64,000 bases of DNA from Chlamydiales bacterium (lineage in GTDB: Bacteria > Chlamydiota > Chlamydiia > Chlamydiales > JAAKFR01): positions 231,331-295,330 of the forward strand of contig JACKPM010000003.1 of NCBI GenBank assembly GCA_024233495.1, in the 5' to 3' direction. Both the position numbers and the translations under genes were made by a program. The notes under the pieces are model-generated. The model saw nothing but the letters and a program-made list of their open reading frames with translations. It had not been told where the DNA came from and made no database searches. This document shows, one piece after another, positions 5,135 through 48,300 of this stretch (position 1 is its first letter; every line of letters begins with the position of its first letter).

Positions 5135-5589
5135 CTAGATGGTGTCGTCAAATTTTCTCCTTTGTGAGGCGAGAGATTTTCTAGGCAAAATGCGCCTTCG
5201 CAACCTCGGAAGTAGCGCTTTGGCTACTCCCTTCGCTTTCGATTGCGCATTTTGCCTAGATGGTGTCGTCAAATTTTCTCCTTTGTCAGCCGGATCTTTT
5301 CTGCCAAAATGCGCCTTCGCAACCTCGGAAGTAGCGCTTTGGCTACTCCCTTCGCTTTCGATTGCGCATTTTGCCTAGATGGTGTCGTCAAATTTTCTCC
5401 TTTGTCAGCCGGATCTTTTCTGCCAAAATGCGCCTTCGCAACCTCGGAAGTAGCGCTTTGGCTACTCCCTTCGCTTTCGATTGCGCATTTTGCCTAGAAA
5501 ATCTCTCGCCTCACAAAGGAGAAAATTTGACGACACCATCTAGAAAATCTCTCGCCTCACAAAGGAGAAAATTTGACGACACCATCTAG
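5135..5589. repeat. Modular repeat locus A: 3 tandem ~119-bp units closed by two inverted 50-nt end modules
   Basis: Units lie at 5135-5255 (121 bp variant), 5256-5374 and 5375-5493 (both 119 bp). Each unit is a 31-nt head ctagatggtgtcgtcaaattttctcctttgt, an 18-19-nt linker, and a 70-nt imperfect hairpin closed by caaaatgcgc/gcgcattttg. The sequence ctagaaaatctctcgcctcacaaaggagaaaatttgacgacaccatctag follows at 5494-5543 and 5540-5589. It is the exact reverse complement of 5135-5184. The locus lies between two convergent gene ends. Confidence 0.9.
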
Positions 5590-6209
5590 AGTTTTTTGCG
5601 GTTGTTCCAGTAGATTTCGCCGTAGTCATAGGTAAGCTCGGTGCCGGCGGCAATCTCTTCAATAGCTCGAAAGCCGATGCGAAAGACGCCATCGTGAAAA
5701 AAACTAAGCGATTCAACGTTGGGGGTGTCGCTATGGTTGATAAAGCGGGTGTAGTTTCCCTGATCCTCACTGTCGATAGTGAATGCTTTAGTAGTGCGCC
5801 ACTCGCGCGGATATTGAAAGCAGTAGTCGTTCACATTGCGGAAAATGAGGTTGCGGCGGCGCAAAAGCCCCACATACTCACCCACATATTGCCACTTTTT
5901 CAGCTTTTGATTGGTGAAAAGACCGTACCCAATGCGCTCGTCAATCCACTTGATGGTGACGTCGATGCCCGCTCCCTCTTCCATACTCTTGCCATGCAGC
6001 TTGCCAAGCCAAATCGCAAGAGATTCGATATTCCCTTTTCTATGTGCCTGGGCACACTTTTTACGGATATAGCTCTCCGTGCGCCAATCATTAAATTCGA
6101 GTGCGTCGAGGTAGCGGATATTGAACACACGCTCAAAGTCAGCACGTGTATAGGGGCAGGGCCCTTTGCCGTGATCGACGCTAAAAATGTGTGGGTTCGC
6201 TGTTGACAT
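5586..6209 (-). CDS. SET-domain protein-lysine methyltransferase (chlamydial NUE-like)
   Basis: 207 aa with the SET signatures RFINHSDTPN (NHS motif) and GTELTYDYG. The stop codon (complement of 5586-5588) lies inside the terminal CTAG of repeat locus A. Confidence 0.85.
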   Translation of the reverse strand: MSTANPHIFSVDHGKGPCPYTRADFERVFNIRYLDALEFNDWRTESYIRKKCAQAHRKGNIESLAIWLGKLHGKSMEEGAGIDVTIKWIDERIGYGLFTNQKLKKWQYVGEYVGLLRRRNLIFRNVNDYCFQYPREWRTTKAFTIDSEDQGNYTRFINHSDTPNVESLSFFHDGVFRIGFRAIEEIAAGTELTYDYGEIYWNNRKKL

Positions 6210-47610: not shown

Positions 47611-48300
47611 GCGTGAAGTGGCAAAGAGGATTTGGCCCAGCAAGTGGAGAGCTTCACCACTGAGAAGGCCTAGCACGAGCAGGAGATGGAGACAAAAATA
47701 AGGGAGCTGCAACAGTTGCAAGCGAATCTCGATGAAATGGTTGCAAAGTTAAAGGGGGGTGAGGCACTCTTTGAGCAGTATAAGCTTAAGACAGCCGCCT
47801 TATTCTAACATTTGGAAGAGGCAAAGGCAGGGCGTGAAGGAGCAGCGGCCTGCCTAGATCAAGAAAGCACGATTAGCGGCAAGCTAGGCGATGTGTAAAG
47901 CTGTATGCAGGCTTAATCACTGGTCTTGAGGAAGAGAAGGCAGGGGTTTTAAGAGAGTTTGCATCGTTTTTCCAAGCGATCAAGGTATAGGTCAAATCGG
48001 TTGAAAATTTTACAAATTCATACCATTTGGCTTCACCAAAAGGTGCGCTCTCACGTTCTCATAGACCATAAATGGTCTAAGTCGACCTCCGCGCTTACTT
48101 TGGCTTTGCCATCTGGCACGAATTTGTAAAATTTTCAACCGATTTGACTATATAGAGGCTCAATTCACTGAAATGAAAGAAGAAGTAGATAAAATTAGAC
48201 GATCCGCTGATGGATTTTGCGAAGGGGCAGCTGATGTGATTGCTGCAGCTCGCAATCTGGAGGATTTTGCTGACATTTTGAAAAGAGATTCGACTACATG
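47611..48300 (+). pseudogene. Decayed coiled-coil protein gene, interrupted by stops, a frameshift and MITE copy 3
   Basis: One frame reads SGKEDLAQQVESFTTEKA*HEQEMETKIRELQQLQANLDEMVAKLKGGEALFEQYKLKTAALF*HLEEAKAGREGAAACLDQESTISGKLGDV*. A shifted frame then reads ITGLEEEKAGVLREFASFFQAIK. The MITE follows, then EAQFTEMKEEVDKIRRSADGFCEGAADVIAAARNLEDFADILKRDSTT*, ending at 48300. Confidence 0.5.
47986..48152. mobile_element. MITE-like element, copy 3 (inside the pseudogene)
   Basis: Same TIRs and interior as copy 2, with one extra G in the left end (tataggtcaaatcgg). Flanked by TA/TA. Confidence 0.8.

Follow-up and report, generated by a model that had tools for sequence, protein, structure and literature searches.

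Three non-coding loci in a 64,000-nucleotide stretch of an uncultured Chlamydiales genome (GenBank assembly GCA_024233495.1, 1.716 Mb in 27 contigs; contig JACKPM010000003.1, here C3:231331-295330) raise the question of what kind of element builds ordered arrays from the same modules in different numbers. In the following, the whole 64,000-nucleotide stretch is called the window, and the three loci are called A, B and C. An original prediction, made from the letters of the window, read each locus as a variable number of 119-bp units (a 31-nt head, a linker and a 70-nt hairpin) closed by an inverted 50-nt end. It proposed either a mosaic of the repetitive extragenic palindrome (REP) or bacterial interspersed mosaic element (BIME) type or a MITE (miniature inverted-repeat transposable element) with an interior that expands like a minisatellite. 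We found that loci A, B and C are copies of a single foldback MITE family that is new in sequence and of a well-known kind. The whole explanation, which combines an IS5-type foldback MITE that duplicates TA with arrays that arose by self-nesting and later gained or lost modules, has in our estimate a probability of roughly 0.8.

A foldback element bounded by duplicated TA

The genome-wide blastn search that had been proposed as a check revealed a family extending beyond the three loci, with 217 heads and 107 cores at 110 loci that together make up 0.98% of the genome. Fifty-seven of these loci are clean monomers with the order head-core-inverted head (169 bp with the flanking bases), another 13 form arrays that carry additional modules, and the remaining loci hold truncated or rearranged copies. 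Within the window, the search bore out both the number and the positions of the 11 heads noted before, where shuffled sequences are expected to yield none. The seven cores were recovered as four exact copies and three variant copies, the latter all in locus B (positions of heads and exact cores are given in Table 1). The units are arranged in tandem and vary in number, as described: Tandem Repeats Finder (TRF) reported a period of 119 with 3.0 copies at both 5135-5498 and 20910-21271, and a period of 46 with 2.1 copies at 5494-5590, corresponding to the right-arm repeats of locus A. A unit length of 119 bp agrees with the former period and fails for the first unit of locus A, which is a 121-bp variant.

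The flanks of all complete loci (n = 72) were aligned to set the element boundaries. TA was present on both sides in 66 of them; among these 66, the base to the left of TA was C or T in 63 cases (40 C, 23 T and 3 A), and the base to the right was G or A in 55 cases (35 G, 20 A, 8 T and 3 C). The preferred target is Y-TA-R with a weak preference for A/T at +/-2, and the TA is duplicated; CTAG, TTAA, CTAA and TTAG are favoured sites of such TA insertion, and the target of locus C was C-TA-A. The termini beginning with CTAG in the original prediction had to be revised: the actual boundary is TA, the base outside it is C, T or A on the left and G, A, T or C on the right, and the apparent CTAG ends consist of the TA, one element base and one flanking base. 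CTAG as a 4-bp duplication or as a part of the inverted repeat was likewise rejected because in many copies the outer base of one side is not that of the other (e.g., TTAG...CTAG). The element proper comprises 163 bp (G...C; GATGG...CCATC) with the ends GATGGTGTCGTCAAATTTTC.../...GAAAATTTGACGACACCATC. It holds three internal TAs, only one of which, gcc-TA-gaa at the junction of the core and the right arm, stands in a Y-TA-R context.

The two arms are perfectly complementary over ~28 nt and imperfectly over ~50 nt, and they surround a self-complementary 69-nt core. The head, linker, hairpin and inverted end of the earlier description all belong to a single hairpin with a stem of ~80 bp; the linker CAGCCGGATCTTTTCTGCC, for example, pairs imperfectly with the inner part of the inverted end GGCTAGAAAATCTCTCGCCTCAC. 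A unit plus an end folds as one long foldback, which replaces the earlier picture of a hairpin with separate head, linker and end modules. The whole 163-bp element is predicted to form a single hairpin with ~62 pairs. Its fold energy is -49.7 kcal/mol for DNA (z = -10.4) and, for RNA, -86.6 kcal/mol (plus strand) and -100.1 kcal/mol (minus strand). The element and its reverse complement are 78% identical.

The family displays the features by which MITEs are recognized, namely terminal inverted repeats, TA duplication, small size, absence of coding capacity and dispersal over ~110 loci, and the genome also contains IS5-family transposases whose elements have similar ends. Of the two proposals made for the window, it is the MITE that holds. 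The impression that the family had not been described before agrees with the searches made: among the papers of the library searched for chlamydial MITEs there was no account of it, and in Rfam 15 at the gathering score the window matches only rRNAs, tRNA-His and a group I intron, with no family at the three loci.

The copies are nearly identical (a median of 2 mismatches per 163 bp; 6 of 49 are equal to the consensus) and, by this measure, are young. Among the variants, unit 1 of locus A carries the exact complement of the right arm (GAGGCGAGAGATTTTCTAGG) in place of its left inner arm and is 2 nt longer, and two adjacent changes in unit 2 of the array C2:85843 perfect the core stem. In the monomer C7:35142-35310, which is located outside the window, the apical core is turned round with respect to the arms; this implies that the inverted repeats of the element itself recombined. 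Considered together, the three variant sequences suggest that arm-to-arm conversion and inversion between inverted repeats may take place in this family.

Two further observations were made on the copies. Seven of the 15 polymorphic columns (57, 62, 70, 71, 80, 98 and 103; 78 units) are located at CpG, and nearly all are transitions (hypergeometric p = 0.002), which hints at a possible CpG-targeted cytosine methylation or deamination in this chlamydia. A monomer outside the window (C3:87572-87745) has GATGCCATC at its second internal TA (GGC-TA-...), a sequence equal to the first 4 plus the last 5 element bases; it resembles the footprint left by an excision, or what remains of a copy nested at C-TA-C, a site that is not preferred.

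Ten DDE_Tnp_1 matches were found in the genome, which is 91% complete as assembled. The only intact IS5-family candidate is a 913-bp insertion sequence (IS) at C1:316338-317253, in which orfA (DUF4096) and orfB (DDE_Tnp_1) overlap at an A-AAA-AAG slippery site (NF033580, IS5 family, 203 bits). It is flanked by TA in CTAG, and its ends (GAGGGTGTCCAAAAATTT) agree with those of the MITE at 13 of 17 terminal bases. At C5:84600-85441, a decayed IS5_3-type gene (NF033580, 157 bits) is broken by stops and by another repeat, and the right end of this IS (GATAGTGTCGTCAAATT-TA) matches the MITE end at 16 of 17 positions. No intact IS with ends identical to those of the MITE was found in the assembled 91% of the genome. 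From these terminal matches, the parent lineage was probably the IS at C5:84600-85441, now dead in the assembled part of the genome, and its intact relative on C1 may cross-mobilize the MITE. An IS5-family DDE transposase acting in trans would then move the MITE, insert it at Y-TA-R and duplicate the TA.

Apart from one degenerate full copy, the 913-bp IS has three copies truncated at position 482 (C2:310344-310812, C5:87334-87803 and C1:193987-194282), two of which correspond to positions 1-482 and the third to positions 174-482. Their common end suggests a defined deletion derivative that may itself have spread.

IS5-family-derived bacterial MITEs are likewise short and non-coding, with inverted ends, TA in Y-TA-R/CTAG and many near-identical dispersed copies. 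They belong to the class with a transposase of ~258 aa encoded by two ORFs with a frameshift (NF033580), which we take to be the IS427/IS1031-like group; some members of the latter, such as IS1301, duplicate TA in AYTAG. The IS5-family elements of the same genome also resemble the present family in their GA.GGTGTC... ends and in the duplication of TA in CTAG. What sets this family apart from IS5-derived MITEs is the new sequence, the full-length foldback and the strict self-nesting, and the cognate transposase is a candidate here. Correia elements (NEMIS/CREE) of Neisseria are foldback-type MITEs of 100-160 bp with TA duplication and hundreds of copies in a small genome, and they are often found at gene ends and transcribed into long hairpins. 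The likeness to them is one of kind, no relation in sequence having been looked for or seen; the host here is an obligate intracellular chlamydia, and we know of no ordered self-nested arrays of Correia elements. REP and BIME of enterobacteria and pseudomonads are also extragenic, palindromic, clustered and often located between convergent genes, but their own features (20-40 nt, GTAG/CGTC heads, no target duplication and a RAYT (Y1) transposase) do not hold here. A search for the Y1/RAYT transposase PF01797 gave no match in the genome, whereas controls matched in 6 of 14 genomes. With no RAYT gene and with a 163-bp foldback, GATGG ends and TA duplication, the proposal of a BIME/REP-like mosaic element was abandoned.

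Ordered arrays and their origin

Let U stand for the left arm together with the core (117 nt) and E for the right arm (44 nt). All arrays of the genome can then be written as U^nE^m in a single orientation, and every junction carries TA: ...GCC-TA-GATGG... where units meet, ...GCC-TA-GAAAATC... in the middle and ...CCATC-TA-GAAAATC... where ends meet. The counts (n,m) were (1,1) at 57 loci, (3,3) and (2,2) at three loci each, (3,2) and (2,1) at two each, and (3,1), (4,3) and (1,2) at one each. Both numbers are coupled, with m being at least 2 in 9 of the 12 loci with n of at least 2 compared to 1 of the 58 with n = 1 (Fisher p = 3e-8). Throughout the genome, nested copies occupy only the internal CTAG, which is the junction of the core and the right arm.

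The modules are bounded by TA, they correspond to the left arm with the core and to the right arm of the monomer, and their counts are linked; we propose that all three features are explained by whole copies that insert at the internal CTAG. The insertion of a whole copy in the same orientation would convert U-E into U-[U-E]-E, that is, U-U-E-E, and a third copy would yield U3E3; the donor would often be a local copy. In a monomer, slippage or unequal exchange has no direct repeat to work on, and therefore the first duplication step needs an insertion. Units of balanced arrays often differ in family-wide variants. Column 60 (C/T, non-CpG and family-wide) is mixed within the arrays C12:20800, C6:20589, C2:85843 and C6:58068; because family-wide subtypes are mixed within these arrays, different donors are called for. 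Once direct repeats are present, slippage or unequal exchange would add or remove single modules. The loss of modules would mostly hit the identical 46-bp right-arm repeats and lead to 3/2, 3/1 and 2/1 arrays, such as loci A and B. From this pattern we infer nesting by transposition, with slippage as the source of the unbalanced arrays. Nesting is unsurprising in so compact a genome, which is 89% coding according to the crude longest-ORF map used here for all gene contexts: 418 intergenic CTAG sites are located outside the family and 212 inside family loci, and the MITE-internal CTAG makes up a sizeable share of the neutral sites.

Several observations weigh against this explanation, and the first group of them concerns amplification in place. 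Units within an array differ at 2.0 positions compared to 3.3 for random pairs (permutation p = 0.002). In locus B, units 1 and 3 share the private variant GGCGTC (column 8 C), to which a change in the only right arm corresponds, and units 1 and 2 share A at column 98; such private variants among units and end support the local amplification that had been suspected for this locus. In the array C2:181790 (2,1), the two units are identical and both carry a private change, and there is one end. Overall, n exceeds m in 6 of 13 arrays, and the reverse was found in 1. Local amplification is real and more than a minor add-on.

The same observations would be expected if minisatellite-type growth by slippage or unequal sister exchange had been the main process after a single insertion, with no nesting by transposition. 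We consider this unlikely. The likeness of units within arrays, the private variants of locus B and of C2:181790 and the excess of n over m all agree with it, but growth of this type has no direct repeat to misalign in a monomer and needs another mechanism for the first duplication. Slippage of U and of E would also be independent, and yet n and m are coupled; in addition, several arrays mix family-wide subtypes, and the TA duplication of the family is present at every junction. The idea of an interior that expands like a minisatellite stands to the extent that local amplification contributes; it fails in that the modules are the halves of the element itself and that their coupled counts fit nesting better than slippage. 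As for the variant common to loci A and C and the other one in locus B, A and C have T at unit column 60, which is a minority variant genome-wide (14 of 78 units), and column 57 is A in all three units of locus B, as it is in 13 of the 78 units of the genome.

Modular repeats of two other bacteria provide a comparison. BOX elements of Streptococcus pneumoniae (boxA-boxB(n)-boxC) occupy about a hundred intergenic loci. They are similar to the present family in their modular head, variable repeats and tail and in the number of intergenic loci, but they have no clear target duplication at the junctions and one variable module, whereas here two modules vary together and the junctions are TA. The BrickBuilt MITE of Porphyromonas gingivalis has inverted-repeat ends, a variable tandem interior and an intergenic location, its interior being a 23-nt minisatellite that is unrelated to its ends (Klein et al. 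2015, PMC4596501). It shares with the family described here the character of a bacterial MITE with a variable number of modules; in contrast, the modules here are the element's own halves, a target duplication stands at their bounds, and the counts are coupled. A MITE with an internal minisatellite of the BrickBuilt type was rejected for the same reasons, the modules being formed by the left arm with the core and by the right arm, with TA junctions and n coupled to m.

A second group of points against self-nesting as the origin of the arrays concerns what they lack. The genome arrays contain no nesting in inverse orientation, and no head-to-tail tandems of whole elements were found in the genome. 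The junctions U-U and E-E are likewise free of insertions, although CTAG is also present at ~75 flanking sites. With at least 13 independent events and with random sites and orientations, p would be ~1e-4 for each absence; judged by the non-CpG variant, about four nestings are surely independent. The target logo is symmetric and too weak to account for nesting at one site and in one orientation. Moreover, the link to a transposase is imperfect, the ends of the sole intact IS5-family candidate differing in part from those of the MITE and the closest match belonging to a pseudogene; neither an empty site nor a polymorphism between strains was obtained for loci A, B and C; and the array copy numbers rest on one assembly.

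Possible causes of nesting at one site are a hot spot at the junction of arm and core, an instability of abutted ends and of inverse nestings, or arrays that transpose as units. A bolder version of the first cause, which appears doubtful to us, would make the arm/core junction a polar, self-directed hot spot that is guided by the transposase or by the distorted DNA of an extruded hairpin. The ordered U^nE^n concatemers would then result from self-homing that spares the host, the apical core motif kept in several chlamydial genera would serve as the site where a protein or the transposase binds, and hairpin-templated conversion would keep the arms paired, as could be read from unit 1 of locus A, unit 2 of C2:85843 and the flipped core of C7:35142.

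Self-nesting followed by the gain and loss of modules is, taken as a whole, ordinary transposon biology with an unusually orderly nesting pattern. The coupled counts of units and ends provide a quantitative signature that distinguishes nested self-insertion from minisatellite slippage and that is usable on other modular bacterial repeats, and the strict site and orientation of nesting pose a small, testable puzzle on target choice in the IS5 family.

Position at gene ends

Of the 70 intergenic loci, 33 are located between convergent genes, compared to 17.4% of all gaps (binomial p = 1e-8). At 15 of 66 loci, the duplicated TA belongs to the stop codon of a neighbouring ORF (100 codons or more), and at 25 of 66 the element is 30 nt or less from a 3′ end. 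Because the element starts with G and ends with C, its insertion into the TA of a TAA or TAG stop codon always rebuilds TAG, for a gene on either side; 15 stop codons of this genome are partly built from transposon ends. On locus A, a PEBP-family gene and a SET-domain gene converge, the stop codon of the former being 9 nt before the start of the locus and that of the latter being overlapped by it (Table 1). The remark that loci A and C start 8-9 nt past a stop codon was correct, the distance being 9 nt in both cases; the ORF that ends before locus C has 303 codons.

Frequent hits in TAA and TAG stop codons would follow from the TA target preference, and insertions into stop codons or between convergent genes would be tolerated in a genome that is 89% coding. 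Target choice together with purifying selection is enough to explain the bias towards 3′ ends. Neither strand of locus A contained a called terminator-like site, and no T-run follows any stem, the element ending with ...GACGACACCATC-TA. A canonical intrinsic terminator was rejected because no T-run follows the stem; the predicted hairpin may still have a role in transcript ends.

A search with the apical-core pattern found related foldbacks only in two other chlamydial metagenome-assembled genomes (MAGs) of the same family, KR126_chlam_2 (G012; two copies) and MFD04463.bin.c.14 (G021; a single copy), and in three metagenome contigs of the G012 type, all of them flanked by TA in Y-TA-R. The relatives have CTCGGAA-n-CTTTGGC-n-CCTTCGC in common, with GGATCTTTTCTG on one side and GAAAATCTCTC on the other, and their stems differ; the terminal repeats of G021 are unrelated to those of the 163-bp element. 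Most non-chlamydial matches to the core pattern were without the flanking motifs and were discarded as chance.

The covariation analysis that had been suggested for the hairpin supports it. In an alignment of five elements, 93.5% of the cells pair, and compensatory changes are present in 37 of 68 pairs compared to 4-10 in slid controls, a value that 0 of 500 shuffles reached. Covariation within the family is uninformative because the copies are too young, with ~100 single-sided changes versus one compensated pair.

It could be argued that the element or its arrays were recruited as a 3′-end RNA or DNA signal (a bidirectional attenuator, an mRNA stabilizer or a protein-binding site in the core) and are kept by selection, which in our judgement is distinctly improbable. 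The enrichment between convergent genes and beside stop codons is strong, as this would demand, but such a bias is also what the targeting of the TA in stop codons together with purifying selection predicts. The hairpin is very stable on both strands, but its stems lack a T-run, no terminator-like site was called, and changes within the family are mostly single-sided, with substitution rates being alike at paired (2.2%) and unpaired (3.0%) positions. The core motif and the flanking GAAAATCTCTC are kept, with covarying stems, in the MAGs G012 and G021, which belong to other genera, and in metagenome contigs. Transposon ends covary anyway, and the covariation of transposon arms alone is no argument for a function at the RNA level; moreover, the related elements of G012 and G021 are present in only one or two copies.

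Foldbacks at G021:C1:1173362-1173542 and C2:50524 have the conserved inner core plus GAGAGATTTTC, and their outer terminal repeats are unrelated; the G021 core foldback is single-copy in a complete 2.4-Mb chlamydial genome. Going by sequence, the core module seems to be older than, and separable from, the ends. Each standard unit also contains a weak sigma-70-like match (TTGTCA-16-TG-CAAAAT, 9/12; window positions 5283-5310 and 5402-5429), and the number of such sites is not above that in shuffles.

Occurrence in other assemblies and neighbouring elements

Two genomes of the same genus contain no copy of the family, and an exact 25-nt probe for the head gave no match in 185,579 species genomes or in the metagenome contigs of the Joint Genome Institute (JGI). 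Mobile DNA is considered scarce in Chlamydiae; ~110 near-identical loci in a 1.7-Mb environmental chlamydia and none in two congeners point to recent transposon activity in an obligate intracellular lineage. In the genomes of the same genus, where synteny is lacking at locus A, the PEBP and SET genes are 12 kb apart and only 70% identical. In a contig of a sister strain, the head is found at the SET-gene stop, as in locus A, and the two genes flanking locus C are not on record in contigs from other samples. Contigs from three short-read runs all stop inside the head. The family accounts for the three odd loci, for ~1% of the sequence and for many contig breaks of short-read assemblies. It is very improbable that the multi-unit arrays are artefacts of assembling a highly repeated 163-bp element and that only the monomers are real: short-read assemblies of the same organism do break at the head, and the array C5:30828 is full of small indels, but the 13 arrays follow one consistent grammar and lie in large contigs between unique flanks, and their units differ at specific positions, which collapse or expansion would not create.

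Table 1. Positions of the repeat loci, their modules and adjacent features, counted from the first base of the window
Feature	Position	Strand	Remarks
Locus A, array U3E2	5136-5588	+	Left TA 5136-5137, right TA 5587-5588
Locus A, units	5138-5256, 5259-5375, 5378-5494	+	First unit is the symmetrised left-arm variant
Locus A, right-arm modules	5497-5540, 5543-5586	+
Locus A, TA junctions	5257, 5376, 5495, 5541
Locus B, array U3E1	20911-21315	+	TA junctions 20911, 21030, 21149, 21268, 21314
Locus C, canonical monomer U1E1	29636-29803	+	Element proper 29638-29801
Locus C, internal CTAG	29754-29757		TA at 29755-29756, the single internal Y-TA-R, at the core/right-arm junction
31-nt head, plus-strand copies	5135, 5256, 5375, 20910, 21029, 21148, 29635	+
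31-nt head, minus-strand copies	5513, 5559, 21286, 29773	-
69-nt core, exact copies	5186, 5305, 5424, 29684
SET-domain gene, TAG stop	5586-5588	-	Gene 5586-6209; stop consists of the duplicated TA and the terminal base of the element
tRNA-His	20324-20398	-
Second MITE, unrelated, ~162 bp, TA-flanked	20650-20811	.	Ends ...GTCCAATTGGTTGAAAA; adjoins locus B
16S rRNA, rRNA operon	from 21997

The surroundings of locus B were as first described, with tRNA-His and another MITE on one side and the rRNA operon on the other. The 23S rRNA gene in the window contains a group I intron (25735-26371; Rfam RF00028, 58 bits). The other MITE represents a second family that often neighbours the 163-bp element elsewhere in the genome and is not part of it. 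Further members were found in the window at 1675-1836 and 47986-48152 and outside it at C4:142254, C1:196060 and C3:65946; their ends are GTCAAATCGGTTGAAAATTTT, and they have GTCAAAT in common with the 163-bp element. The latter is often located at a TA beside second-family ends (at least 7 loci), and hybrid ends exist in which the terminus of the 163-bp element is fused to a second-family terminus.

A 1.54-kb segment outside the window (C11:15361-16901) has the MITE terminus GATGGTGTCGTCAAATT in inverted orientation at its two ends, together with TA in CTAG. It contains no transposase but an F-box ORF that is fused or frameshifted to a 353-codon ORF, which appears WD40-like by eye, and it looks like a putative mobile insertion cassette with a eukaryote-like effector gene.

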